64,000 nucleotides of DNA, taken from NCBI RefSeq assembly GCF_036971445.1, contig NC_091475.1:33232001-33296000 (forward strand), given 5' to 3'. The position numbers and the translations under genes were made by a program. The notes under the pieces are model-generated. The model was not told where the DNA came from and searched no databases. It saw nothing but the letters and a program-made list of their open reading frames with translations. Of this stretch, positions 15,960-53,074 are shown piece by piece; the stretch's first letter is position 1, and every line of letters starts with the position of its first letter. This DNA comes from Narcine bancroftii. Lineage: Eukaryota.

Positions 15960-16844
15960 ATGAGAGACCGACTTCGAGAGCTTAGGCAATGGGCAAAAGA
16001 GACTGAACTTTCAACAGACAATGCAAGAGGAAAAACAAAGCAAAATGAAGTTAATGTGACCTTTAAACAGCAAGTCATCATTTTTGAAAATGAACCAGTC
16101 ATACTGAATTTCTTAGCTTATACACAAGGAATTCAAAATGACATTAATGAACTTAAAAACTATATAAAGAAACTATGTGATCAAAGCACTGCCACAGTGC
16201 TTTTCACAAGACGGTTCAGTATTATAAAAAAGGACAGTTCCAATCTTATTAAAGGTCTCAAGGTCCGCGCTGAGTCCATCCACAAGCAATTAAATTCTTT
16301 ATCAAAAGATGCCAAAGAGTCAGAGGAAGAGTGTGGCAAAGATGCAGTTGTTTCAAGAATTAAGAAAGCACAATATTCAATGCTGTTTAAGCAATATCAG
16401 ATGGCCATGTTAGAATTCAACACAGTTTTAACTAATAAACAAGAAATATGCAAAAAATTCATGCAACGTCAGCTTGAAGTTATTGGCAAAGAAACATCCG
16501 AAGAGGAGCTAAACAACATGGTTGAACATAACAAGTGGTACGTTTTCAATGAAAACTTCCTCAGTGATATCAAAATTACTAAACAACACGTGTCTGAAAT
16601 CGAATTCTGCCATAAAGAGCTAATAAGCCTTGAGAATCAGATCAAAGAGCTGCAAGATCTCTTTGTGCAGATTTCACTTTTGGTGAAAGAGCAAAGTGAC
16701 TCTCTAAACAACATTGAAAGAGCAATGTTGAACACAAAAGAATACACAGAGGAAAGCAAGGATGTAATCAACCAAGCAAGAAAATATGCAAAACAAAGTC
16801 TCTGCACAAAGTTATGTTGTTGGTGTTTCACTTGTTGCATCTAA
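15960..16844 (+). CDS. STX19: Syntaxin-19 (Qa-SNARE, no transmembrane domain, Cys-rich C-terminus)
   Basis: 294-aa single-exon ORF with an MRDRL N-peptide, Habc and SNARE domains, and the C-terminal LCCWCFTCCI. An acceptor (ccacag) lies 9 nt upstream of the ATG. Nested antisense in an ARL13B intron, as known in other vertebrates. Confidence 0.93.
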   Translation: MRDRLRELRQWAKETELSTDNARGKTKQNEVNVTFKQQVIIFENEPVILNFLAYTQGIQNDINELKNYIKKLCDQSTATVLFTRRFSIIKKDSSNLIKGLKVRAESIHKQLNSLSKDAKESEEECGKDAVVSRIKKAQYSMLFKQYQMAMLEFNTVLTNKQEICKKFMQRQLEVIGKETSEEELNNMVEHNKWYVFNENFLSDIKITKQHVSEIEFCHKELISLENQIKELQDLFVQISLLVKEQSDSLNNIERAMLNTKEYTEESKDVINQARKYAKQSLCTKLCCWCFTCCI

Positions 16845-25238: not shown

Positions 25239-25488
25239 ACGAGGACAGGTTTTCCAGCAACCTTTGGATGCCTCAAGACATTGGCCACAGTATCTTTAAC
25301 TTCTTCCATTCGATCAATATCACTGGAGTCCAAAACAAAAATAACACCAAAGGATTCTGCATAATAGTTCTTCCAAATATCTCGGATTTTTTTACCTCCT
25401 CCTAAGTCATAAATGGTGACTTCAAATGTTTCTTGTTTTAAATCAATTCTTGAAAACCCCACTGTGGGAGCCACATCCTCTGGGGATT
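25239..25488 (-). CDS. ARL13B: ARL13B coding exon 3 (switch I/II)
   Basis: 250 nt encoding [13 protein letters not shown]...[19 protein letters not shown]...GKPVLV. DLGGG lacks the catalytic Gln, which is typical of ARL13. Donor GTAAGT. Confidence 0.97.
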
Positions 25489-29699: not shown

Positions 29700-32600
29700 G
29701 AGGGGGCATGACAAGATGGCATAGAAGAAAGATGTGTATTCCACCTTTCCCCAGCTGGATCGCTAAATACCTGGTTTTTAAAAAGCATAAAAGTGGTTAA
29801 AAATAATATTTACAGTTGTTTAAATAACAGTGATTTATGATGGCATCCAATGTGAAAAAAGTTAAACCTCAACTTCAGAAAAAATTACCATACAAAAGTG
29901 CGGAAGAATTGAGGCCTACCTGCATAGCTGAATCCATGGAATCGTCGTTGGGAGTCTCCAAGCCTCAGAGGACTCCAACCCGTTCGAATTTGACTCCGGC
30001 GCCGATCCTGCCTCCGCAAGATGGCGCCGACACCTTGGTGAGCTCTGCCGTTGCCGACCCGCTTTCAAGTGAAGCCGTGCGTGCGGGCGGCACAGCCGAC
30101 AAGGGGACCCGCGAACCCGCTGGGCGGCCGGTAGCGCGCAGTGTATGGTCAGAGGACGCTCCTGCGCGTCTGACGGCTTTGCCTGGCCTGCGTGGGGCAT
30201 CCTGGGGTCGAGAATTGCTAGATAAAGTATGGGCTGTGGGGGAGCCCAAACGCCGGCGTCCCGAAGAGGTTGGGGCGCCGGCGTCGAGTGTCCAGATCCG
30301 CAGCCGTTCAGCCAAAGGACCTACGATGACTGAGGAAGAAGAGGAACTTACCTTATTGGAATTTGTCCAGGAGGAGGAGCCTGTAGTTAAAGGAGGTAGA
30401 TCTCAAAAAGTGGAAGTGAAATCTGGAATGGATTCAGTGTTTACTGTTTTGGAGGGGATTGCTTGTCAAATGCATAATATGTCAAAACAAATATCAACTC
30501 AAGTGAATCAAGGATTTATGAAGATAAAAATGAATACCCTGTGTGATGAAATGACAATTGTGAAACAGGAAATGACTGTAGTTGAGACTGAAATTAATAG
30601 ATGTATAAAATCAGTTGATACTGTGCAAGATAATTTTAAGAAAATTGAAACAGCCTTTTCTGAGTGTCAAAATCAAGTGGAACATAATAAAGAAAAAAAA
30701 TGGAAAAAGTGGAAGTTTCTTTTGTAGATTGGGGAATTCAAAAAATGGGATTTAATGAAGAAGATTGATTCGTTGGAAAATCAAAGCCGAAGGAATAATG
30801 TGAAAATAGTTGGTCTTCCAGAGGGCATTGAAGGTGCTGATCCTATAAAATTTTTTAAGCACTGGATTCCAGAGGTGCTGGGTAAAGAGCTTTTTCTTGA
30901 AGGCTTGGAACTGGATAGGGCTCACAGAGCTCTGAGAAGAAAACCACTTCCAGGACAAACACCGAGGGCAGTCTTGGTTCGTTGTTTAAAAATCCAAGAT
31001 AGAGAAATTATTTTACGTATGGCAGTACAGAAAGCACTGCAGAATCAGTCTCCATTAATGGTTCAAAATAATAGTATTCTTTTATGCCGATTTGCCAAGA
31101 GGTTATTAGAAGACAACGAGAATTTAATACGGCCAAAGATGTTTTGTGGTGAAAAGGCTATAAGTTTGCTTTTCATTATCCTGCAATTTTGAAGGTTTTT
31201 TTATGGAAATTTTCAATCTCAATTCTTTGAGAATGATCATGATATTTTGGTTTTTACTAATTCTTTGCCGGAATTGTGAAGAAATGGGTGTTCTCCTCCG
31301 TTGCCTCCTAAGAGGAGGGTAAATGGAAATGGAAAGTATGGAAAGAAAGAAGAGTTGACACAAAGTCTTCTTGATGTTGAAGATCCGGAGCAGTCGTTGG
31401 GCTTGGAATCATTGGGCTTAATATATGCACTATCTTTTATTGTGTTTGATTAAATAATAAATATGTATCTGGCTGGGGGGGGGGGGGGGGGGTGGGATAA
31501 CACTGAAAACTTTGATAGTCATCTGCCGCTAGTAGGTTTAACACACCCAGATTTTTACGGTATTACTACCTTTGGGTGGTTTTTTTTGTATTTTTCTGTA
31601 ATTTTTGGGAGGAATTATAGAGGGAACATTTTATAGTGTGCAAATATACAAGTAGTTTAAAAAGATGTCGAAATTGAATTTTTCAACTTTTAATGTTCAG
31701 GGATTAAATCATCCAATTAAGAGAAAGAGAATATTGTCTTATATATATCAAAAAATTAAAATTGATACTGTTTTTTTTTTAAAAAAGAAACACATTTGAC
31801 TGAAAAAGGACATTTGAAATTGAAAAGAGGTTGGGTTGGTCATGTTTTTTCTTCTTTTAATTCTAAGGCAAGAGGAGTAGCAATTTTGATACATAAAAAT
31901 TTACCCTTTGAATTGGAATCTTCAGAGGGGAATGCTGCCAGATTTATTTTTGGTATCAGCACATTTACAAGGTAGAGTATTAAGAGCTGAATATAAAAGT
32001 AGAGTTATATCAGATCATTCATTATTACTTTTTTCTTGTGAAAGTTCGGAGGTAGTACGTCCGTCGTTTAGATGGAGGTTTAATGCAATGTTATTGAAAA
32101 AACCTGAGTTTGTTACTTTTGTTAAAGAACATATTTCTTTATTTTTGACCGAGAATGTTAATTCTGTGGATAGTCATTTTGTAATATGGGATACTTTAAA
32201 AGCTTATTTGAGGGGGCAGATTATTAGTTATTCTACGAAAGTTAAGAAACAATATGGCAGAAAGTTTAGAGTTAGAAAATAAGATTGCTGAGTTAGAGAA
32301 AGATTTTCAGAAAGATGTAACAGAAGATAAATAAGTCATATTAGCGAGGTTGAAATTACGTTATAATACTTTACAAACTTATCAGTTTGAGCGTTTAATT
32401 AATCAATCTAAACAACATTATTATGAGTTGAGGGAAAGAGCTCATAAGGTACTTGCTTGGCAATTGAAAGCTGAACAGACATCTCGGATTATTAATGCTG
32501 TTAATAAGAATTCAAAAGTTACATAAACCTCAGGAAATTAATGACCAGTTTTATTCATTTTATTCCAAAAAAAATAGAGATCCATTAAAAGTGTCTTCAT

Positions 32601-34958
32601 ATAGACCTATTTCTTTATTAAATGTAGATTATAAAATTATAGTGAAAGCATTAGCTAACAGACGATAAATATTTACCTAAATTGGTACATATTGATCAAA
32701 CAGGTTTTATTAAGATTAGAAATGCATCAGGCAATACATTTTGATTAATTACTTTGGTTAGCGTATATTAAAAGCAACCTAACCATCCTATGGTAGTTGC
32801 ATTAGATGAAGAAAAAGCTTTTGATAGGGTTGAGTGGAATGTTTTATTTAAAGTGTTAGAGAAATTTAAATTCAGCCCTTCTTTTATTGGTTGGGTTAAG
32901 GCTTTATATACGAACCCAAATGCTAGGGTGGTGACAAATGGACAGATTTCTTTACCATTTAAATTGACTCGTTCAACTCGACAGGGCTGCCCGTTGTCAC
33001 AAGCCTTATTTGCGTCGGTTATTGAACCGTTAGCTCAGGCTATTAGACAAAATGAAGAAATTAGAGGGATGAGGGTTAAGAATGAAGAATATAAAATTAA
33101 CTTATTTGCGGATGATGTGTTGGTATATTTGACCGAAACGGAACAGTCATTGAAACAATTGCAAGAGTGTTTGTTAAAATTTGGAGAATTATTGGGATAT
33201 AAAGTTAATTGAAATAAAAGTGAAATTTTACCGTTTTGGAGTGGGAGATTATTCTGAATTTAAAACAATTACAAAATTAAGGTGGACAAGTAAAATTAAA
33301 TATTTAGGTGCGTTTATGGATACGAATTATCAATCATATCAATTAAATTATGTACCTATATTAAGATGGATTAAAGCAAATTTGAATGTGGAAAGATCTT
33401 CCATTAACTTTGATTGGTCGGGTTAATTGTATTAAAATGAATATTTTCCCTCAAATTCAATAATTATTTCAGTCATTACCTTGTTTACTCTCTAAGGGCT
33501 TTTTTCAAGATTTGAATAAAGCAGTGCGAGAGTTTTTATGGAAAGGTAAATTAGCTCGAGTGGCGTTGCATAAACTTACATGAAAGTATACATTGGGCAG
33601 ACTACAATTACCACATTTTCAAAGCTATTATGAAGTGGCCCAGTTGAAGTTTATTAGTAGATTGATGGATTTAGATCAGCCTCCCATCTGGGCTAAAGTG
33701 GAGATAGCGTGTATTTCTAGGGTTGAAATACATGAATTTATATTTCGTTGGAATTTGATTTTGTTACAGCAATATGATATGCGGATATTGAAACATTTGT
33801 GAAAGATTTGGTTAAAAAAAAACAGGGTGTTAGGGTCGAAAGATAAATGATCAATTTTAACTCCATTATATAATCAGCTTATTTCTTTTTCAATGTTTAA
33901 TAATTATTTAAATATTTGGGATTCTAAAGGTATAAAGACAATACAAGATTGTTTTGTAAAGGGGCAATTTCTTTCTTTAAATCAATTGAGAGAAAGATTT
34001 GATATACCTGTAAATTCTTTGTTTGCGTATTATCAACTTAGAGCTTTGATAAAAGATAATTACGGTAGAGAGATGATTTTACCTACTTTGTCGAGATTTG
34101 AATCTTTGATTTCCTCTATTCTGAAAAAGGGTTATATTTCAGTTATGTATAATTTGTTACAAGATAGTATGGATAAGACAGATTGGGAGAAATCTAAACT
34201 TAAATGGGAGAATGATTTAGTATTTATTTTTCCCGAAAATGATTGGGCGAATACGTGTCAGGACAATGTAATTAAATTGACTAATGTAAGATATGGAATG
34301 GTTAATTATAATTTTTTACATCAATTATATTTGACCCCGGAAAAGTTTAAAAAAAACATGGGTTTAGTAATTCGGATTCTTGATTTAGATGTGGCTCATA
34401 TATTGGAACTTTTCTACATCCTGTTTGGACTTGTGTTAAAGTTCAATCATTTTGGCAAGGAATTAAAGTAGTTTTGGAGAAATTATATAATTTTATATTA
34501 CCGTTAGATCCAAGGATTTTTTTTGTTGGGAAATTTGTATTCGTTAAGGGGAATGGGATTGGATAAAATTCAAATTGCTTTTGTATGTTTGGTGTTATCA
34601 GTAGCGCATAAATGTGTTGCTAGTACTTGGAAAGATGATACTGAGATTAATATATCACATTGGCATAATGAATTGAAAGCATGTATTGTTATGGAAAAAA
34701 TTACTTATAATTTACATGATAATTCTTCTTTTGTTAGTAAGTGGTCTCAGTATTTGAAATATATGCATTTAGATATACTTTGAAATGTTATTAACATTTA
34801 GATTATATTTATATTTAAAAATTATATTTTTTTTGCTCCCCTTAAGGAGCTGTAGGGGTGGGAGGGTGGGATGGGTGTTAATGCAAAATCTGTTTTTTTT
34901 ATTATTTCTATACTGTATGTAATGTTTTTATTATCTTTTAAATAAAGTTTGAAAAAAA
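29700..34958 (+). mobile_element. 5'-complete but degenerate L1-clade LINE (ORF1 ~29837-31400, ORF2 ~31665-34783)
   Basis: 13-bp TSD agaaatatgtgag at 29687 and 34959. The 5' end is GAGGGGGC..CAAGATGGC. ORF1 has LENQSRRNNVKIVGLPE. ORF2 has FNVQGLN, SDH, SYRPISLLN, TRQGCPLS and LFADD. AATAAA plus an A-rich tail at the 3' end. Confidence 0.93.
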
Positions 34959-39156: not shown

Positions 39157-39960
39157 TTAGTGAAGACAACTAAGAATAAGAAGGTGATTAGGAAAGAAAA
39201 GATAAATTATGAAAGGGGCTATGCAAATAATATCAAAAAGGATACAGAAAGTTTTTTTAAATATAGAAAGTAAAAGAATGTTCGAAGTAGACATCGAATC
39301 GATAGAAAACTGTAATGGGAGACAAGGAGATGGCAGAGGAATTGAATGAATAATTTGGATCACTGTGGAAGACATTAGTAGCATATCAGACTCTCATGGC
39401 TCTCTCAGAAGTGAAGTGAGTGCAGTCAAGATCACAAATGAGAAGGTATTTGGAAAGCTAAATGGTGTAAGGGAAGATAAGTCTCCTGGATGGGATGGAA
39501 TGCACCCTCTGAATGAAGTAGCTGCAGAGATTGTGGAAGCATTGGTAATGATCTTCCAGGAATCAATGGATTCTGGCATGCTTCCGGAGGACTGGAGGAT
39601 CGCAAATGTCACTCCACTGTTTAAGAAAGGAGCAAAGCAGCAGAAAGGAAATTATATCTGTGGTTGGGAAGCTGTAGGGAGTCGATTGGTAAGGATGAGG
39701 TTACAGAATACCTGGAGATGCATGAAAAGATAGGCCCAAGTCAACATGGTTTCCTTAAAGGAAAATCATGCCTGACAAATCTATTGCAATTTTGTGAAGA
39801 GATCACAAGTAGGATAGACATGGCAGATGCAGAGGATGCTGTGTATTTGGACTTTCAAATAGCCTTCAACAAGGTGCCACACACAAGGGTGCTAAACAAG
39901 ATGCTGAGAGCCCTTGGAATTACAGGAAGGATACTAGCATGGGTAGAGCAATGGTTGATA
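39157..39960 (+). mobile_element. CR1 LINE, RT fragment
   Basis: KSPGWDGMHP, PEDWRIANVTPLFKKG, QHGFLKGKSCLTNL and YLDFQIAFNKVPH. Confidence 0.9.
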
Positions 39961-40292
39961 GTCTATTTTTAATTTAATGTATACTATTGCAGTTTTATTT
40001 TCCTCATGTAATAATTCTGGAAAATACACACTAAACAATGTATATAACAATAAACATGATCATTCTAATTTAAATTACTGTCTAACATACAGGAAACACA
40101 TCTTTGCAAACTTTTGAAAACCCATACTTGCCAGTTTGTGAGAATTGGTTTTGGAAATATCCTTGGCTCTAGTACACTGATATCTACATTGTCATGCAAG
40201 GTGACTTTCATATCAAATTCAGTTGCATGCAAACCTATCATGTAGAACTTCATCGTTAATAGCTAGTCCAAAGTAAACGTTTAAAATCATAC

Positions 40293-40351
40293 CGGATGGG
40301 TTCTCGCCAACGTTTTAGCCATAAGCAGCAGTTCGCCATGAGCCTAAACAT
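40293..40351 (-). CDS. ARL13B: ARL13B coding exon 1 (MFRLMANCCLWLKRWREPIR)
   Basis: ATG at 40351 and 59 coding nt ending at a GTATGA donor. The N-terminal amphipathic helix has the Cys8-Cys9 palmitoylation pair, as in vertebrate ARL13B. A strong acceptor (ctttcttcattccattacag) at 40400 implies the exon spans 40293-40399 including 5'UTR. Confidence 0.93.
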
Positions 40352-42264
40352 TTCTTCGCTGAAAACCTGGAGGATCAAACTTCAGTGAAGAAACAATATC
40401 TGTAATGGAATGAAGAAAGCTTGCATCAAGCAGTTTACAAGTAGGTACTTTCAAACTTATCAAAAACAATGTTATACCATGAAAATAAAAGGATTAACTA
40501 TTTTGAATACTTGTACCGTACTAAACAAGTATGAAGATGATACAAATTGTTATTTTATTACTGATGTCAATAGCCAGGTTCTTTCTACCCAGATGAATAG
40601 ATAAGCAAACACAAAACACTGGATGGAGAAACTCAGTAGGTCAGAGTGCATCAGTGAAAAAAGAAACAGATCACCAATGCTACCTTACCTGCTGAGCCTT
40701 TCCAACATTTATGTTTTTGTTTCATATTTCCAGAATTTCAAGTCACTTTTCCTCATTCATATTCTACATGTTGAGTTTAGAACTGTGCAGTTGAATGCAG
40801 TGATAAAAAATGATTCCTATTAACATTGAGAATTAGTTTTACTAAATTAAATCAAAAACATGACGTGTGTTATGTTTACACCATATGGATACAAAATTCT
40901 TATATCATCAGATTTACTAGGGCGAAAGGAAAAAGTACATGAACAAGGAACAGAGGAAAGAAAGAAAAGAGTTTTAATTAGCATGGGTAGAAGGATGTTC
41001 AACTGTAAATGTTACATTAATGCCAGTGATGACCATCCAAAGTTTTGCTCACAAATCACGTTATGCTTCATTTCTGTACTGAGGAAAGTGCATCATTGAG
41101 GGGGAAGGTTGGACACAAATTGGGAATAAATTGGCAACACCTAATGAATCCCAATTTAAAAAAATGCTTTCCTCAAATGCACGTTTGGCCTCATCCTGAC
41201 AATTAATAAAACATATCTATGTAGGAATTATAGGAGAGTTGAAATGATTGGCCACAGAATGTTCAATCCCACAACCACAAACTCAGAGCATAGGTAGTCA
41301 CAAAGTTGTCATCAAATCTGAATTTGGTCTCATCAATATAGAGGAATAAATATAGTCATACAGCATGGTAACAGCATGGTAACAGGCCCTTCCAGCTCAA
41401 AGGCCCTTATGCTGCACAAATACACCAATTAACCTAGTAACCTGAAGGGTGGTATAAAACCAGAGCATCCGAAGGAAACCCATGCAAACACTGACAGAAT
41501 GTACAAACTCCCTCTAGACAGCATTCGATTTGAATGCTAACAACACTGCCTCGGTAAAACTGAATGTGGTAGAACAGGTTAGATAATGTGCACGTAAAGC
41601 TCTGCTTCATCTGGAAGGTCTATTCACAGCCTTGGATGAAGGTGGGGAAGGCGGCGTGAGAGATGTTGTCTACTTTCTACAATCACAGAAGGAAGTGCCT
41701 AAGGGATGGAAGGGATAGGGAGAGAAGAGCAGCCCAGAGAGTCTTTGAGAGTCTTCCCTGTGAAAAATAGATAGGGATGCTGAGAAGATGTGGTTGCTAG
41801 AGAGATTGTGCTGAAGTTGGAGGTGTTGGAGGATACTCTGTCAGATTTAGAGGCTGGTGGAAAGGAGTGTGAGGACCAAAGGGAACAGCACATCATATTC
41901 CCCCTGGATATCCTCAAACATAATGGCATGAACATCTACTTTTCTAACTGTAGGTAACTCTTGCAGCAATCTGCTTCCACTCTTTCCATTCTTTACCTCA
42001 GCCTGTCAACAGCTTTTATGCCCCTTAATGTCACCCCAAACGATTGAAACCAAAAACATTGACTGAACATTTCTACCCATGGATGCTGCCCAACTTGCTG
42101 AGTTCTTTTGTGTTTTACTTAAACCACGATGTCCAAAGAATTCTGTGTTTTACCTGATTAATTCTTCCAGGTCATAGCTTTCTCAAGATTCCAGTATCTG
42201 TAGATTTTGTGTTTCTCTGACCTGCATAAAAGCTTCTTTTGTCTAATTCACAGATATAACAAAG

Positions 42265-43440
42265 TGCTTTTATGTTGGAATTGATTATTTCAGACCTTTT
42301 GAAGTTAAAAGAGGAAGAAGTATTGTGAAATGTTATAGTGTGATTTTCACTGGTTTAGCTATAAGAGCAATTCATTTAAAAGTTGCCACATCTTTTATCA
42401 GTGGTCCTCAGCAAATTATAGCCAGACGTGGTCAAGTGAAAGAATTAAGATATGATCATGGTATCAATTTTGTTGGAGCACAACTGGAGTTGAAGGAAGC
42501 GATTAAATATTGGAAGCAGAATCAAATTCATGATGTAATGCTTCAAAAGAGTATTAATTGGATTTTCCACCCTCCTACTGGATCGCATCATAGAGGTATA
42601 TGGAAAAAGTAATTTGTTCAGTAAGAAAAATTCTAAATTCTATATTAAAAATAAAAAATCTTGAAGAAGGTCTTCAAACAGTTTTGTGTGAAATTGTTAC
42701 TCTCAATAGCCGTCCAATTACCAAGGCTTCAACAAATCCAAATGATCTTGAAGTTCTTACTCCAAATCATCTTCTACTTCTTAAGACTAAGCCTTCGATG
42801 CCACCTGGACAATTTTGAAAGGAAGATATATATTCTCGCCACAAGTAGAAGCAGATCGAATTTATGTCAGATTTGTTTTGGAAAAAATGTGTAAAAGAAT
42901 ATCTTCCTATGTTAGGAGAACGACATAAATGGTTTACAAAGCGTAGTTTCTCACCTCATGATATGGTGATCATTATGGATGATTCAGCTCCTCGGAGTTT
43001 ATGGTTGATTGGGAAAATTATTGATACTTTTCAAGACAATCGAAAGTTTGTTCATCAAGTTCAGATCAAAGCTAAAACATTTTTTTTTGGATTCGGGTGA
43101 TTACCAAAATTTGTCTTTTGCTGGATATTGAGAAATCTTACAATTCTAATAATTGATTTGTTACCATGTATTCTTTTTTGGTTTTTCATTTTTGTTTTGG
43201 TAATTATTATTTTAATCATAATAATTAGGGGCCAGATTGTAGGAACCAAAATGATAGAATTACTGTATTAGTATATTTACAGGACTGCTTATTTCATATT
43301 TTTGCTGTATTCTGTGAAAGTCATAGACTAGGAGCTTTTTTTGAGAATTGGAGAAGGGGTCAGTTTTTCCCGGTGGATCAAGCAAGAAGTCTTGTTTGAT
43401 GGTCAGTAAGTAAAATGCTTCGATAATGTTTTGTTGACCT
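42265..43440 (+). mobile_element. BEL/Pao integrase C-terminal region, PPT and partial 3' LTR
   Basis: RAIHLKV, ARRG, INFVGA, PPTGSHHRGIW, LNSRPI, LTPNHLL and FWKK..EYLP; gggccagat|TGT at ~43238. Confidence 0.8.
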
Positions 43441-43589
43441 CAAGCTATCTCAAGCAAGTAATTTCGTGAATTGCAATTGTAATTATTACCAGATCAAATA
43501 ACCATATGTTTATCTGTTTCTGAATAGCCACCAATGGTACAAAACCAAAATCAAAAAAGTTAGTCTGAAGATAAAATGTAGTCACATAA

Positions 43590-44380
43590 ACTGCATGCTG
43601 AGTATTTCTAGCATTTTCCATTTTTATTTCATACTTCCAATATACATCAAAGTGCAAAGTTCAGATATATTGTCAGAGTACAAACCTGACATGGCACCCA
43701 AAATTCTTTCTCCTGCAGGCCATGAAGAATGTCCACTTACCAATAGTGCAAAAAATTGTACTCAGGAAAGGAGATGGATACAAAAGAGAGAAATGTAAAC
43801 AAGGAAAAAAAATCTAAATAAACTGACTGTGTAATGCAGAAAAATAAATTCAATAATAAATAAAGTGCAAAGTAATTGAGTTTGTTGTTCAGGAGTCTAA
43901 TGGTGGAGGGGTAGCAACTGTTCCTGAACCAAGTGGTATGTGTCATATGGCATCTACATCTCTTTCCTGATGGCAGCAGCAAGAACAGAGCATGTCCTGG
44001 GTGGTGCAGATCTTAGATGATTTGTGCTGCTCTCCAAAGGCAGCGTTCCATACAGATTTTCAGAAAGGTGGGGAAAGTTGAATACATTTGTCAAGTTGGT
44101 CAACACAGGTTTTCAGTACTCGGCTAGGTAATCCAACCAGACCGGATCCTTTCCTTGGACTCACTCTCCAGAAGGCAGTCCACACATCATCCTCGGATAC
44201 TGACAATAGAGGATCAATAAAACACATGGGGGTGCGCAGTAGTTCTTCCTTGTTCTGGTGTCAAATTGGGCATAAAAGGTATCGAGTTCATCTGGGAGAG
44301 AAGCTTTGCTGTCTTCTACTGCATCGGATTTGATTTTGTTGCAGATTAGGTCATTTATGCCCTGCTACAGCTGACAGGTA
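43590..44380 (-). mobile_element. Rex1/Babar-like LINE fragments with 3' tail
   Basis: LLPSGKRCRCHMTHTTWFRNSCYPSTIRLLN. Confidence 0.65.
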
Positions 44381-45879
44381 ACAAATGTTGCCCAACTTTC
44401 GCTCCTTTTTCTGCACTTCCTACCTGGGCAGGAAAATGAACTATAGCTCATTTAATTTACAAAAATGCCAAATACAATTCCATGGCCACCAGTTGTTCAA
44501 CACTTGAGTAAATAAATGGATTCTACTCCAATTATTTAGTTACGATTAATAGCCCACAAAGTAACACTGGCTAAATTTCAGCAAAAATACTCCAAAATAC
44601 TTCAAAAACAAAAAATCTAAAACAAAAACTGAAACTGCTGGAAATGCCCTTCAAGTCAGTTGAAAACTGCATAGAGGAAAAGTAGGTAACATTTCATTTT
44701 GTGCAAATGACCTTTCATCATAAGTGAAGGGGGAAAGATAACATCATTGTGAAACTCAACAAGAACAAATGTTAGAAATATTTTACAGGTCAGTCATATC
44801 TATACAGAAAATAATAGATCATCCAACAAACCACCCTATGACAATGAAGATCTCTCCCCTTCTCAGTGAAGAGCAAAGCACTGGAAATTGTTGGAGTTTT
44901 GTGAAGATGCAAAGCCATCATGAACTTTTCAGCTTCATTTGCAAATGGCCTACCTAACTTGCTGCAAAGAAGTGGGATTAACAAAGTACTATATTTAATG
45001 GCACATAGGACCCCACCTCCCCAGACAAAAAAAAAACTTAAAAATCCACCCTTGGTCCTATACGGAAAGTGACATTTTGGTGCTGCCATTTTTGGCATCA
45101 AAATACAAACGTAGTGGAGACTTACCTCCACAAAATGGTGACAGGGGGAAAATGCTCTAACTACTCACTCAGCTTCAAGAAACCTGCAAAGGTGATGCGG
45201 ATGTCCAGAAAGCAGGCCAGCAGCTTGGCAGACCACCTTTCCTCTGGGTGGTCCGTGCTTTCTGGAGTCACCACCGCTGCTCACTTCCCCCAGTGAGAAG
45301 GGGGGAAGGGAGGGAGGGGGGGAAGGGAGGGGAGGGGGGGGAAGGGAGGGAGGAGGAAAATGACAGTGTATATTCGAGGGAAATGTTTATGTGTATTTTG
45401 GTCAATATGGTTCATAGTGTGAAAAATATTTTTTTTTTAAAAAACAAGCAATTAATCAGTTGCCCCTTGATATGGTCCTGCATCATTCCTGTTGCACTGG
45501 GTTCCCTCCCTCCCGCCCCCGTTTGTATGGTGAAGGGGAAGCAGAATGAGTCTCAGCGTGCAGCAGACAGGATTTTATCGTGTGTGAGGAGGCTTCGGTG
45601 AGTTAAGGTAAATATACTAAAACAAATTTTTTCTGAAATCTCACACTAAAAATGGGAGGGTCTGGTATGCCATCAAATAAAGTACTGTTTCAATGCTATT
45701 CACTCCCATGAGGATCTTAAACATGCCAGATGGAAATGATGATTTACTCCTACACCAAAAAATATCCGGGAAAAAGCAACTAAAGGGATAGGCCATTGGT
45801 TCCTTAAACTGTACTATCAATCAATAACATTGTAGATATGGTCTCAACCGCTTTCCTGTTTCCTGGAGGGGGGGTGGGG

Positions 45880-46830
45880 AATGCAGTTGTTTAGGTTGGG
45901 TGGTGTAATGTAAAGCTGTCTCGCCTACAAGATCTGTTTTTGTCCCCGGATGGAGATGAAGGAGATGTAGTAAAAAGCTTTATACTTTCTGCAATTACAG
46001 CAGGAAGTGCCTAAGGGGGTGGAAGAGTGGCTGAGAAGGGAAGAGCAGGCAAGGCAGTCTCAGAGAGACTTATCCCTACAAAAAATGGATAGGGGTAGAA
46101 AGGGGAAAGATGGGATCACACTGAAGTTGGCAGAAATTGTTGGAGGATAATGTGTCAGATGTGGAGGCTGCTGGGATGGAAAGTTAGGAAGAGAGGAATC
46201 CTGTCTTGTTCCGCCTGGAGAACAGGTAGGTTGAGGGCAGAAGTACAAGAGATACGGTCATGGGCTTTATCAATAATAGGAGGGGAGAATCCACTTTTAT
46301 TAAAGAAAGAGGTAATTTCAGATGAGCTGAAGAGGATGGCATAATCTAATAACACATACAGAGGAATTGTGAGAAATGGATGGCATCCTTACAAGAGAAA
46401 GGGCAGAAAGAGTTAAAATTTAAGTCGCTGTGAGAGGCCATGGTTTTGTCATAGATGTCCATGCACAGTTTGTCTCGAGATGGAGATAGAGAGGTCAAGC
46501 AAGGGGAGAGAGGTGTCAAACAATTGAGATAAACTTAATAGCCAGATGGAAGTTGGTAGAAAAACTAAGAAATTGTCAAGTTCTGCACAGGTACAGGAGG
46601 TAGCAGCAAAACTGTCACCAATGTAGTGGAGGAAGAGTTGGGGATTATTATCTGAGTAGGATTAGAACAGGTACTCTTCCACATACCCAATCAAAAGGAA
46701 GACATAGCTTGAGCTGATTATGTGTGCCTAAGGCTACATCTGGGATCAGGTACAATTGAGAGGTATCCAAGGACAAGTTGTTAAGGCTGAGGACAAGCTC
46801 CACCAAGCAGTGAGTGTTAATCAATGGGGA
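45880..46830 (-). mobile_element. Penelope-like element, RT fragment
   Basis: Minus-strand remnants PQLFLHYIGD, SSEITSFFNKSGFSPPIIDKA and RIPLFLTFHP; a related piece lies at ~41560-41950. Confidence 0.7.
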
Positions 46831-47107
46831 CTAAAAGCCTGTGTTCAGGAAAGCTGAGTGCCGTTAAAGTAATGGGCTTTCTGGTTTAGAATGGTGTTGA
46901 TTAATACATCAAATACATTAACACATTAACCAAAATATCAATGCATAAATATAACTTAGTTAATACTAATGTTGGTTCAGTTACATATAACTAAGGACAG
47001 TGTGGAGACAGAGGATGTGTATGGCCTGGCAACGACAGCCCTAACATTGGACAGCAAGAGATTCTGCAATGTTGGTGTCCTGGTAACAACAATGATTTGA
47101 TGAATTT

Positions 47108-48366
47108 CACGAAAACCAACAAGGTCGGGTCAGATACAGCAATGAGCTCTCTGAACCCTTCTCCATTAACAATGGCGTGAAGCAAGGCTGTGTTCTCGCA
47201 CCAACCCTCTTTTCAATCTTCTTCAGCATGATGCTGAACCAAGCCATGAAAGACCCCAACAATGAAGACGCTGTTTACATCCGGTACCGCACGGATGGCA
47301 GTCTCTTCAATCTGAGGCGCCTGCAAGCTCACACCAAGACACAAGAGAAACTTGTCCGTGAACTACTCTTTGCAGACGATGCCGCTTTAGTTGCCCATTC
47401 AGAGCCAGCTCTTCAGCACTTGACGTCCTGCTTTGCGGAAACTGCCAAAATGTTTGGCCTGGAACTCAGCCTGAAGAAAACTGAGGTTCTCCATCAGCCA
47501 GCTCCCCACCATGACTACCAGCCCCCCCACATCTCCATCGGGCACACAAAACTCAAAACGGTCAACCAGTTTACCTATCTCGGCTGCACCATTTCATCTG
47601 ATACAAGGATCGACAATAAGATAGACAACAGACTCGCCAAGGCAAATAGCACCTTTGGAAGACTACACAAAAGAGTCTGGAAAAACAACCAACTGAAAAA
47701 CCTCACAAAGATAAGCGTATACAGAGCCGTTGTCATACCCACACTCCTGTTCGGCTCCGAATCATGGGTCCTCTACCGGCATCACCTACGGCTCCTAGAA
47801 CGCTTCCACCAGCGTTGTCTCCGCTCCATCCTCAACATCCATTGGAGCGCTTTCATCCCTAACGTCGAAGTACTCGAGATGGCAGAGGTCGACAGCATCG
47901 AGTCCACGCTGCTGAAGATCCAGCTGCGCTGGGTGGGTCACGTCTCCAGAATGGAGGACCATCGCCTTCCCAAGATCGTGTTATATGACAAGCTCTCCAC
48001 TGGCCACCGTGACAGAGGTGCACCAAAGAAAAGGTACAAGGACTGCCTAAAGAAATCTCTTGGTGCCTGCCACATTGACCACCGCCAGTGGGCTGATATC
48101 GCCTCAAACTGTGCATCTTGGCGCCTCACAGTTTGGCGGGCAGCAACCTCCTTTGAAGAAGACCGCAGAGCCCACCTCACTGACAAAAGGCAAAGGAGGA
48201 AAAATCCAACACCCAACCCCAACCAACCAATTTTCCCCTGCAGCCGCTGCAACCGTGTCTGCCTGTCCCGCATCGGACTTGTCAGCCACAAACGAGCCTG
48301 CAGCTGACGTGGACTTTTACCCCCTCCATAAATCTTCGTCCGCGAAGCCAAGCCAAAGAAGAAGAG
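47108..48366 (+). mobile_element. Young 5'-truncated RTE (BovB-like) LINE with an open RT C-terminal ORF at 47177-48307
   Basis: KQGCVLAP, LLFADD, QLRWVGHV and a C-terminal CxxC...H finger; short 3'UTR, (GAA)n tail, CpGs retained. Confidence 0.92.
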
Positions 48367-49379
48367 AGATGTTCTTCAGCACAAGGGGAGGGGAGAGGGG
48401 TTAAGAGAAAGAAAGGGAGGAAACAAGGAAGGGTGAAACAAGTGGAAAATGTGGGATTGGAGAGGTTTGTAGGAAGGCAGGATATCACTTCCTTCCCTTC
48501 ATTCTTGATGAAGAATTCCAACCCAAACCATTTCTGACCATAATATCTGACCTAGTGAGTTCCTCCAGCAATTCTTTGCTCAAGATTCCAGCCTTTACAG
48601 CTTTTGTGGGGTTTTTTTTCTGCCTTGAATTTGACAATGACCCTTCTCAGCTCTCAGGGATACATATATCAAATGATTCATGACCTTCTGAGGAAGAAAG
48701 TCATCTGCATCTGAAATGGGCAGCAACTTCTTCTGAAACTAAGTACACTAATTTTGGATAACATTATATCGACAAGCAGTGCCTGACGTTATCAGTTCGA
48801 CTACAATGCAATTGAATTACAGCTTACTCAGTTGGAGCTCTCTGGAACAGATTTTGTCCAAAATCTCAATTATTTTTGTTTTGCCAAAAACAAAAGTAAT
48901 TCAATAAGATTTACAAAAAAAGAACATTTTCTAGTGTTGGAAAGCTCCAACCAGTGGCATCATTCAGGTTGGTGTCACCCAGTGTGCTGACTGACCCCTC
49001 CCCATGGACTGAGTAACTGAGCCAATTTGTCATTTTTTTTCCCTCCTCCTTTTCCTTTAATTATTACTTCATGCCCAAAAAAGTTATCGATATAGGTTCA
49101 CAAATACCAATGGCCACAATATTGTCGCTAAAAAAACCCAAAAAATTTGACAAAAGCAGCAACTATAGAAACACCAGCAGCAACAAAAACAACAGCTCAT
49201 GCTTGTAGCAAGTGCAGATGAAGCCAGGATTCAAAGCATCATTGTAATTAGGTAATAAATAGAATGATTAGAGGCTCAATAAGTAAATTAGCATAGAATT
49301 TTAGCCTTGTTAGCTGAGCTTCCAAAAAATACAGGTATATTTATATATAAATAAATTTCTGCTGAAACAATGCTCAAAG

Positions 49380-50260
49380 ATTTATTTTCTAGACAGTCAT
49401 TTTGGGGGTCTCCCCCGAAATGACGCCAGTGGCTCCATGTCCAAGCCCTGCCCGGCCCTCCAGGCGCGCACAGACACACAACCCAAGCCGACGTCTTCGG
49501 GGTCTCCCAGTTCCTTGCCCAAGTGCGGATGAAAGATCGCGGCAACACAGGGCGCCAAACAAGACCGCGCCGCAAATCTCAGCCATTCCCTCCGGCAGCA
49601 GCGCCGGGGCTCGCCAATCACCGCTCGTTACCCAGCAAACAAGGCGGGAGGCGGTGTCCGGGAGGGAGAGAGAGACGCGCCGCGGGCCGGGCCTGCTCTC
49701 CTTGCAAAGCCCAGGCCGGCCGATCGGAGCCCCATCCCAGGTGTACTCACCACGCCAGCCCCTTATCCGAAACTGCGGTCCCTTCTGTTTATGTCTACGG
49801 TTGCCACGCGGGTCCCCGGGTTCGACCGTCGTCCTGGTGACGAGGCCTGCATGGCCAGGTGGTCTGTGACGTCACAGCCCTCGGTGCCGCTCGCTCCATC
49901 CCTGGATCCGCGGTCCGGGGGGTAGCGCAGCAGCGGGGGGTCTGTGACGTCACGGCCCTCGGTGCTGCTCGCTCCATCCCTGGATCCGCGGTCCGGGGGT
50001 TAGCGCAGCAGCGGCGGTCTATGACGTCACGGCCCTCGGTGCTGCTCGCTCCATCCCTGGATCCGCGGTCCGGGGGGTAGCGCAGCAGCGGCGGTCTATG
50101 ACGTCACGGCCCTCGGTGCTGCTCGCTCCAACCCTGGATCCGCGGTCCGGGGGGTAGCGCAGCAGCGGCGGTCTATGACGTCACGGCCCTCGGTGCTGCT
50201 CGCTCCAACCCTGGATCCGCGGTCCGGGGGGTAGCGCAGCAGCGACTCCCCGATTAGCAG
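49380..50260 (-). promoter_or_regulatory. CpG island and probable ARL13B promoter, with a non-coding exon 1 ending at 49751
   Basis: Very CpG/GC-rich compared with the flanks. Minus-strand donor G|GTGAGT at 49751/49750, CCAAT at 49614, and X-box-like GTTACCCAGCAAAC (49627-49640) and GTCGTCCTGGTGAC (49828-49841). Confidence 0.7.
49861..50244. repeat. GC-rich minisatellite, 5 x 77-78 bp, one TGACGTCA per unit
   Basis: TGACGTCA starts at 49867, 49945, 50022, 50099 and 50176; the units are nearly identical. Confidence 0.97.
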
Positions 50261-50664
50261 CAAAGGACGAAAAGTCTGCAAACACCGTGAGTGAAGTAAA
50301 ACCACAATGCGGGAGAAACCCACGCTTCAAACTCCCAGTTTTATTTTAAACCCCCCCCCCACAGTTTAGTTTGTCTTCAGATTATGGTGGTGGCAAGTCA
50401 AAGGGCCGGAATGTGTGGTCTCTGACTGCACACCAGAGGTTCAACTGATCCACCCCTTAGGGTGTTTAGATCGCAGGCATTGTCACGGCACCATCAGCGA
50501 CATTTACCGTTACACGGGCAGTCTAAAAAGGAAAAGGAAAGTCATTTCCTGCACGGCGATTTATCCTGCAGGAAACCCTCAGTCTAAATCGCATGACATA
50601 ACCCACTTCATGAATTCGACGTCCAGCTGATGACTCAGACTGTCCACGTCAAAGCACCGGGACT

Positions 50665-52011
50665 CTTCTTTCTTCTTCTTTGGCTTGGCTTCGCGGACGA
50701 AGATTTATGGAGGGGGTAAAAAGTCCACATCTGCTGCAGGCTCGTTTGTGGCTGACAAGTCCGATGCGGGACAGGCAGGCACGGTTGCAGCAGTTGCAAG
50801 GGAAAATTGGTGGGTTGGGGTTGGGTTTTTCCTCCTTTGTCTTTTGTCAGTGAGGTGGGCTCTGCGGTCTTCTCAAGGAGGTTGCTGCCCGCCGAACTGT
50901 GAGGCGCCAAGATGCACGGTTGGAGGCGAGATCAGCCCACTGGCGGGGGTCAATGTGGCAGACACCAAGAGGTTTCTTTAAGCAGTCCTTGTACCTCTTC
51001 TTTGGTGCACCTCTGTCTCGGTGGCCAGTGGAGAGCTCGCCCTAGAACATGATCTTGCGAAGGCGATGGTCCTCCATCCTGGAGACGTGACCCACCCAGC
51101 GCAGTTGGGTCTTCAGCAGCATGGATTCGATGCTTGCGGACTCTGCCAGTTCGAGTACTTCGATGTTGGTGATGAAGTCATTCCAATGAATATTGAGGAT
51201 GGAGCAGAGACAGCAGGAAAGGGCTTTGGCAAATACTAGAGCGCCTCGGATGCCCCCCCCCCACCAAGTTCCTCAACATGGTTATCCAACTGCACGAAAA
51301 CCAACAAGGTTGGGTCAGATACAGCAATGAGCTCTCCGAACCCTTCTCCATTGAGAACAGCGTGAAGCAAGGCTGCGTCCTCGCACCAACCCTCTTTACT
51401 ATCTTCTTCAGCATGATGCTGAAACAAGCCAATAAAGACCTCAACAATGAAGACGATGTTTACATCCGGTTCCACACGGATGGCAGTCTCTTCAATCTGA
51501 GGCGCCTGCAAGCTCACACCAAGACACAAGAGAAACTTGTCCATGAACTACTCTTTGCAGACAATGCCGCTTTAGTTGTCCATTCAGAGCCAGCTCTCCA
51601 GCGCATGACGTTCTGTTTTACGGAAACTGCCAAAATGTTTGGCCTGGAACTCAGCCTGAAGAAAACTGAGGTTCTCCATCAGCCAGTTCCCCACCATGAC
51701 CACCAGTCCCCCCACATTTCCATCGGGCACACTGAACTCAAAACGGTCAACCAGTTGACCTACCTCGACTGCACCATTTCATCTGATGCAAGGATCGACA
51801 AAGAGATAGACAATGGATTCGCCAAGGCAAATAGCGCCTTTGGAAGACTACACAAAAGAGTCTGGAAAAACAACCACCTGAAGAAACACACAAAGATCAG
51901 CGTGTACAGAGCCGTTGTCATACTCACGCTCCTGTTCGGCTTCGAATCATGGGTCCTCTACCGGCATCACCTACGGCTCCTAGAATGCTTCCATCAGCGC
52001 TTCCATCCTCA
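50665..52011 (-). mobile_element. RTE LINE with a 5' inversion
   Basis: The 3' part is on the minus strand (50665-~51213) and the upstream part is on the plus strand (~51214-52011). 9-bp TSD accgggact at 50656 and 52012. Confidence 0.88.
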
Positions 52012-53074
52012 ACCGGGACTAACACCCACTTAAACGACCACAAGGTGAGTCATTGTGTTAATTTTTTTTCTCACAGATTTTCCAACATTGTTGTCTAAAA
52101 AACACTACTATGGACCCCAGAGAGAGACAACTTCAGTTGTCTGGACATGTGTCTTTTCTAAGAATCTGTAAACAGACATTGAGACAACCCAGAGCCTTCT
52201 TACACACATGAAAGAAATCCAACATTCCAAGAGAGCAGAACATAACTGAATGTTAAAACATGCAAGTAAGGGAAACGATGTAATTTCCACTGAACCTCAG
52301 AGATTGCGTATGCCCTGAAGGACATCAAGACCACTGATTCACCTCCGACTCAGTGGATGCCCCTTGCACTATTTCCAGACATGCTGGCACATTCAAAGAA
52401 GCAGGAGAAAGGTGAACAGCCCCACCACACGAGTGATGTTCAAACTGATATTTTAGTTGTCCTAGACATTTGGAAATGTACGCTTACTCTAAAAGCTTGC
52501 AATGCATAATGCCTGCATTCGCAACCTTTTATTCTCTTGATTTACGAGCCCTCATGGCACCTCTTGGTAATACTGTGAGTGACAGCTACTATGAAAGAAA
52601 GTTCAGTGTAAGTGTGATCTTTCCACCTACTGCTTACACATGAACTTGTTCGTAAGCCTTGTGCCCACAGTACACTCCTGAGTGAAATAAAAGCAGGAAT
52701 CATCAATAGAGCTCCTCTTATCCACCTTAAGATGCTGGAAATTTGAAATTTAAAAGATGGAAAATAATGGAAATGTTCAGCATCTCACTCAGTGAGAGAA
52801 AGAACACTGATGTGATGCCTTTCATTTAAGCATTCACATTGAAGAATACATATTACCCTCTTGAGAAACATGGTAAGATAAATGGGAAACAAGCAGACAA
52901 TACAAACATTATTTAGAAGATAGCCTCAAAGATCATTTTAAAGGATGAAAATTAGTAAATCAGTCAATATGAATGTCATCAATGGTATGCACTGGGTGCC
53001 ATTAAGTGATCTACCGAGGAATGTTTGATAACAAAAAATGCTGGAGAAACTCAGTAGGTTACACAGCATTTATA

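Follow-up and report, generated by a model that had tools for sequence, protein, structure and literature searches.

A young five-copy CRE minisatellite straddles the transcript start of ARL13B in Narcine bancroftii

A minisatellite of five 77-bp units, each bearing one full CRE (TGACGTCA), straddles the start of the ARL13B transcript in Narcine bancroftii and forms part of its 5' UTR. The array is real, young and not unique in its genome. Our best explanation, to which we give slightly better than an even chance (about 0.52), is that the unit came to stand five times across the ARL13B start through recent CpG-island instability and that constitutive CREB/ATF binding modestly raises basal output, rather than tuning it to cAMP. 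A single ancestral 77-bp CRE-bearing unit would have been expanded recently by slippage or unequal exchange, reflecting an instability of repeats that affects the CpG islands of this genome in general. Starts near unit 2 (~49975-50010) would leave CREs 3-5 roughly 25-200 bp upstream, and CREB/ATF would occupy the CREs constitutively, the extra sites lifting basal transcription to a modest degree, as the analogy with TRIB3 suggests for output. The account builds on what was observed directly: the array in its CpG island, the splice between exons 1 and 2, a transcribed unit 1, a promoter that lacks a TATA box, and the similar arrays at other islands. Positions are those of the window, the whole 64,000-nucleotide stretch that was analysed.

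Tandem Repeats Finder delimits the array at 49861-50244, with a period of 77, 5.0 head-to-tail copies and 97% matches, as the sole long-period array in the 64-kb window. This confirms the five-copy array that a sequence-only reading of the same DNA had described, as well as its claim of a full CRE palindrome in every unit, since TGACGTCA begins at 49867, 49945, 50022, 50099 and 50176 and occurs nowhere else in the window.

49861..50244, unstranded: minisatellite, 5.0 copies of the 77-bp unit, first spacing 78
49867..49874, unstranded: CRE 1, within a 12-bp palindrome (TGTGACGTCACA), inside exon 1
49945..49952, unstranded: CRE 2, probably downstream of some starts, judging from 39 further letters in a contig of run X7 (record 16)
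50022..50029, unstranded: CRE 3, in the context ATGACGTCAC
50099..50106, unstranded: CRE 4
50176..50183, unstranded: CRE 5

Over their 75 shared bases the units vary at 5 positions, with 0-4 differences between any two and none between units 4 and 5; the variants are graded in order from unit 1 to unit 5. Such low divergence, together with the gradient, indicates that the array is young or homogenised. Local tandem amplification of a unit that is not a dispersed repeat, as had been supposed, also holds, because across the 3.33-Gb genome the unit matches only its own five copies at ARL13B, in a search that gives a lower bound on matches. The region 48501-50456 has no matches in 364 kb of DNA from the same genome, the nearest repeat beginning at 50457. 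A transposon-derived array of monomers, which calls for a dispersed unit or dispersed flanks, was rejected on the same lower-bound search. No look-alike of the array was found in the other scanned genomes. Repeats do lie in and around ARL13B, namely an L1-like element, broken and CpG-rich in its 5' part (29837-34471), and two RTE-like LINE fragments (47228-48307 and 50666-52033); one of the RTE-like fragments is ~420 bp upstream of the array. The GC hairpin-prone segment that had been read into each unit found no support, since units 1 and 3 fold within the range of shuffles (z = -1.65 and -0.48, with 14/200 and 57/200 shuffles folding as well), and the hairpin was rejected as a functional element.

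Shuffled windows contain a mean of 0.28 copies of TGACGTCA against the 5 observed, a null that assumes independent copies and so overstates the surprise, as one CRE was copied and the genome holds 35,920 CREs. Since the copies are not independent, we rejected the shuffle test as a test of selection. Indeed, five intact CREs are expected without selection: with 5 of 75 columns variable, the chance of sparing an 8-bp CRE is ~0.56 by hand arithmetic. This lack of a sign of selection fits a neutral passenger, an unlikely reading though one that deserves serious weight, in which the array is a by-product of CpG-island instability at a housekeeping-type promoter already saturated by one CRE, an RFX-like site and a CCAAT motif. 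However, the array sits on the start itself, and among human VNTRs those at promoters are enriched for effects on expression (PMC8096271; bioRxiv 2020.12.16.423078).

The position of the array with respect to the transcript comes from spliced contigs. Nine sequencing runs, none recorded as RNA, cover the stretch, and four were mapped on 39800-49938, an interval that takes in unit 1 only. Contigs of two of these four runs, X6 (record 9, 49751-49929) and X7 (record 16, 49751-49936), are spliced to 40399 without extra letters across a GT..AG intron; the RNA status of both runs is a guess from these contigs, which cannot map a start. The spliced contigs extend 69-76 bases into unit 1, beyond CRE 1, so that the repeat unit is present in the spliced leader, the array straddles the start and part of it is 5' UTR. 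Probably exon 1 takes in part of the second unit as well. Hence the sequence-only reading was right to propose a non-coding exon 1, whose donor the contigs put at 49751, and a promoter location for the array, but wrong to place the array immediately upstream of that exon, which contains unit 1 with its CRE.

49751..49936, minus strand: ARL13B non-coding exon 1, minimum extent, donor GTG/GTGAGT at 49751/49750, 5' end at or beyond 49930
40293..40399, minus strand: second ARL13B exon, carrying the start codon (40351) and spliced to exon 1 over a 9.35-kb intron
25241..25488, minus strand: ARL13B coding exon, Arf domain, used for gene identification
15960..16844, plus strand: intact intronless syntaxin ORF of 294 aa, in an ARL13B intron

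An unspliced contig of run X5 (49368-49918, depth 168) leaves exon 2 uncovered, and the run thus behaves like a DNA or chromatin library. The share of sequence words held by each run was rejected as a map of starts, as even the DNA runs contain just 0.83 of these words, and run X8 ('organism B') was rejected as an orthologue or outgroup, its listed pieces (49466-49732 and 40089-40346) showing 0 differences at a depth below 3. In three runs the unspliced contigs (stretch 49368-49633) start at 49368-49374, which puts them 7-13 bases beyond the AATAAA that the minus strand bears at 49386-49381; they possibly reflect a boundary in chromatin or a short transcript that ended prematurely.

The assumed identity of the gene, a minus-strand ARL13B, is borne out by the minus-strand exons at 40351, 29350 and 25241-25488, which encode an Arf-family GTPase (Arf Pfam match) whose best PDB matches are ARL13 proteins, and the exon at 40293-40399 opens at a splice acceptor. 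The nested syntaxin ORF, probably STX19 by the ARL13B/STX19 layout in human, supports this identity. PROS1, presumably the head-to-head partner if human synteny applies, left no Gla, EGF or LamG motif in a weak test with short regular expressions over the window and the next 200 kb. The ARL13B start codon sits in exon 2, behind the 9.35-kb intron, and the human ARL13B start codon lies in exon 1.

To compare the ends of the contigs with possible arrays, we traced the unbranched 31-mer paths that the reference, and a set of model alleles, would produce. The reference array reproduces the X5 end at 49918 exactly, since a multi-unit array forces the 31-mer graph to branch there, and a model with a single unit overshoots to 49935 and into the flank. 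Only models with further unit types yield the X5 end, which indicates that several unit types are present in a sample that is not S1. It is most improbable, then, that a single unit was expanded in assembly: the units bear ordered variants and the X5 end speaks against a lone unit, even though the count of five comes from the assembly, the read contigs having been compared across unit 1 only. X7 departs from the reference at 49937, the junction of units 1 and 2, and none of the ten reference-allele end points that were tried reproduces it. Its contig, with 39 further letters beyond 49936 that could be adapter, is reproduced if the two-letter junction that separates later units also comes after unit 1 and the 5' ends fall at columns 38 to ~58 of the second unit. 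The X6 end fits a plain 5' end at 49929, or a shorter allele lacking the types of units 2 and 3. These models suggest that starts may lie near unit 2, at ~49975-50010, and that more than one array allele may exist, subject to the pruning of tips and bubbles by the public assembler.

The promoter is that of a CpG-island gene by the thresholds of GC above 0.55 and CpG obs/exp above 0.65 over more than 500 bp at the first exon. Within the array itself the CpG obs/exp is 0.98. A TATA box is absent from both strands of 49400-50500, where exon 1 contains a lone minus-strand CATAAA (49788), and the first 150 bp of intron 1 contain a CCAAT and a GC-box-like motif. The X-box-like motif that had been noted next to the array does occur, as a 14-mer 26 bp from CRE 1, the call resting on a degenerate pattern of our own.

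49400..50300, unstranded: CpG island of ~900 bp, GC 0.53-0.72 and CpG obs/exp 0.79-1.05 in 200-bp windows
49828..49841, unstranded: X-box-like near-palindrome GTCGTCCTGGTGAC, a predicted RFX site in exon 1

It is conceivable, though improbable, that the multimerised CREs make ARL13B inducible by cAMP according to copy number, with ciliary signalling feeding back on a cilia gene. All five full CREs lie within ~250 bp of the probable start, and the promoter thus has a full CRE between -500 and +300 of the start, as defined in the accessible text of PMC5740062, and resembles in its proximal full CREs the cAMP-inducible CRE/TATA promoters of c-fos and Nr4a1 described there. The nearby X-box-like site keeps the idea alive, as CREB binding is promoted by RFX3 where the two share a promoter in human neurons (bioRxiv 2025.02.27.640588). 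Unlike c-fos and Nr4a1, however, ARL13B has a CpG-island promoter that lacks the TATA box of the inducible class, and the same text on neurons describes CRE/TATA-less promoters as bound by CREB and not efficiently induced (PMC5740062). The missing TATA box argues against strong cAMP induction, which we therefore disfavour. Moreover, one or two CREs are downstream of the start, and a five-unit CRE array also precedes exon 1 of RAB12, so that nothing in the arrangement is specific to cilia. Of the tuning by copy number that the sequence-only reading had put forward, the five CREs near the start stand, whereas the lack of a TATA box and the recurrence of CRE arrays at unrelated islands leave the tuning itself doubtful. 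The preferred reading, constitutive binding with a modest gain in basal output, has its own difficulties: CREs downstream of the start might do nothing or repress, and the accessible text of a paper on the human ARL13B promoter names C/EBP-beta and ZEB1 and has 0 occurrences of CREB (PMC13562529).

Since part of the array is transcribed, it could instead act through the mRNA leader, the choice of start or the number of units altering the length and uORF load of the 5' UTR, as proposed for TYMS. An upstream ATG is common to units 1-3 and lacking from units 4-5.

49897..49899, minus strand: upstream ATG in unit 1, with G at both -3 and +4; its uORF has 34 codons and stops 92 nt short of the main ATG
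49850..49852, minus strand: second upstream ATG, outside the array, with a 29-codon uORF

The transcribed ATG of unit 1 speaks for such an effect, and unit 2, if transcribed, is predicted to add a 60-codon uORF. We nevertheless regard a leader effect as hardly probable, because the unit folds no better than shuffles, the second uORF is there regardless of the array, and the clinical associations of the TYMS repeat are inconsistent, at least in the accessible text of PMC3320636.

Whatever its effect, the array is a promoter repeat of the TRIB3/TYMS kind with a putative function, a class already known in humans: its copies stand head to tail at a promoter, with the consensus site in all five units. 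TYMS carries a repeat that reportedly binds USF-1, to go by the title of a cited paper. The closest likeness is to the human TRIB3 33-bp VNTR, which has up to five tandem promoter copies, each with a bZIP (ATF-family) site near the start, and on which reporter activity climbs from 1 to 5 copies of the ATF-site repeat (PMC7425993, accessible text). The TRIB3 site is a C/EBP-ATF composite, and the accessible text of the same paper treats polymorphism, single-copy orthologues and a dose effect as established; the ARL13B array, in contrast, has a full CRE, a 77-bp unit and at least one transcribed unit, and its contigs give a hint of polymorphism. Like the human TYMS 28-bp VNTR in the 5' UTR, it is a GC-rich repeat with a factor site in the transcribed leader of a CpG-island gene, but just 13 bp lie between the TYMS repeat and its start codon, whereas a 9.35-kb intron and ~150 nt of leader separate the ARL13B array from its own, and the ARL13B unit contains an upstream ATG (PMC3320636, in the portion available). 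It also resembles the human minisatellite VNTRs that are enriched at starts and CpG islands and carry factor sites, a subset of which are expression QTLs (PMC8096271 and bioRxiv 2020.12.16.423078); that evidence is drawn from human population data. We found no report of a CRE repeat at ARL13B or of promoter minisatellites in electric rays, in a literature coverage that takes in few subscription journals. Taken alone, the ARL13B array adds another example to a kind of promoter repeat that is well known from humans. If its copy number varies and shifts the dose of ARL13B, a cartilaginous fish would offer natural variation in a core cilia gene.

Similar arrays recur in the same genome. A genome-wide search for three CREs at a spacing of 63-93 bp gave 179 matches, and at least 10 loci on two contigs among the 50 matches listed; a tighter spacing gave 47 matches in 8 loci, one of them shared with the first set. 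CRE arrays thus occupy at least 17 loci including ARL13B, against 6 loci for the E-box TCACGTGA (27 matches, all listed). Among the other controls, TGTCGACA gave 0 matches and AGACGTCT gave 68, with at least 6 loci among the 50 matches listed; CpG-free reversed patterns yield more triples (446, 270, 346 and 80). Single sites, counted for the CRE and TCACGTGA only, are about equally numerous (35,920 vs 37,166). The 17 vs 6 loci correspond to a one-sided binomial p of 0.017, or 0.032 when related loci are merged (14 vs 5), values for a motif picked after the fact that leave the enrichment of CREs in CpG islands uncorrected. A CpG-island-like flank accompanies 11 of the 17 loci, compared with 8 of 528 background bins (the ARL13B island itself included in that background), and a second, CRE-free minisatellite lies within 2 kb in 6 of the 7 other island cases outside transposons, against five such arrays in all in a 264-kb background.

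L038:4868-5203 (G000:C5:355659267-355659602): RAB12 array, 66-bp unit x 5.1, five CREs, just before the first coding exon
L034:4916-5098 (G000:C5:211181515-211181697): 80-bp unit x 2.2, three CREs, upstream of the first exon of a mitochondrial-carrier gene (Mito_carr)
L039:7497-10000 and L046:1-9028 (G000:C5:359720496-359732027): 11.5-kb array built on a 31-bp unit and containing 213 full CREs besides GC-box-like motifs
L033, L042, L043 and L044: CRE arrays at CpG-island edges, with units of 93, 37, 27 and 78 bp
L030:4860-5016, L041:4665-5449, L031:4742-5139 and L032:4896-5119: CRE arrays that lie within copies of Gypsy-type LTR retrotransposons, of two families

The RAB12 array, which ends ~60 bp ahead of an ATG whose frame matches RAB12, is the closest parallel to that of ARL13B: in both, a factor site at a gene start has recently been copied in tandem, but their units differ and their origins are independent. 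The carrier gene is probably SLC25A32-like, and its CRE array adjoins a 3.4-kb pyrimidine-rich array; a CpG-rich stretch comes after the 213-CRE array, and then a 17-bp GC-rich array.

The CRE-free minisatellites beside the CRE arrays point to repeat growth that is independent of the motif, so that the CpG islands of this genome seem prone to such growth whatever motif they carry. The same neighbours favour the neutral passenger, as does the growth of CRE arrays within retrotransposon copies, whereas the excess of CRE over E-box arrays at equal single-site counts speaks against it. That excess could also mean that the genome preferentially amplifies CREs at CpG-island promoters, bound ATF/CREB seeding recombination or repeat growth, with ARL13B one of a polymorphic set tuned by copy number. 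Such seeding has a parallel in the fission-yeast M26/Atf1 hotspot, where bound factor is said to seed local recombination. We lend this idea little credence; if it is true, a vertebrate would offer a natural titration series for CREB sites. The wider pattern, which is of more consequence than the ARL13B array, merits a study of its own, as recurrent amplification of factor sites at gene starts would offer a test of CpG-island mutation bias against bound factor and selection.

Transposable elements account for part of the 17 loci, four of which lie in Gypsy-type elements and two of which have common flanks of another repeat. The Gypsy-type arrays are of two builds: in one, an ETS-CRE-like composite sits in a 24/25-bp unit (6.5 and 31 copies), and the other has an 18-bp unit (22 and 12 copies).
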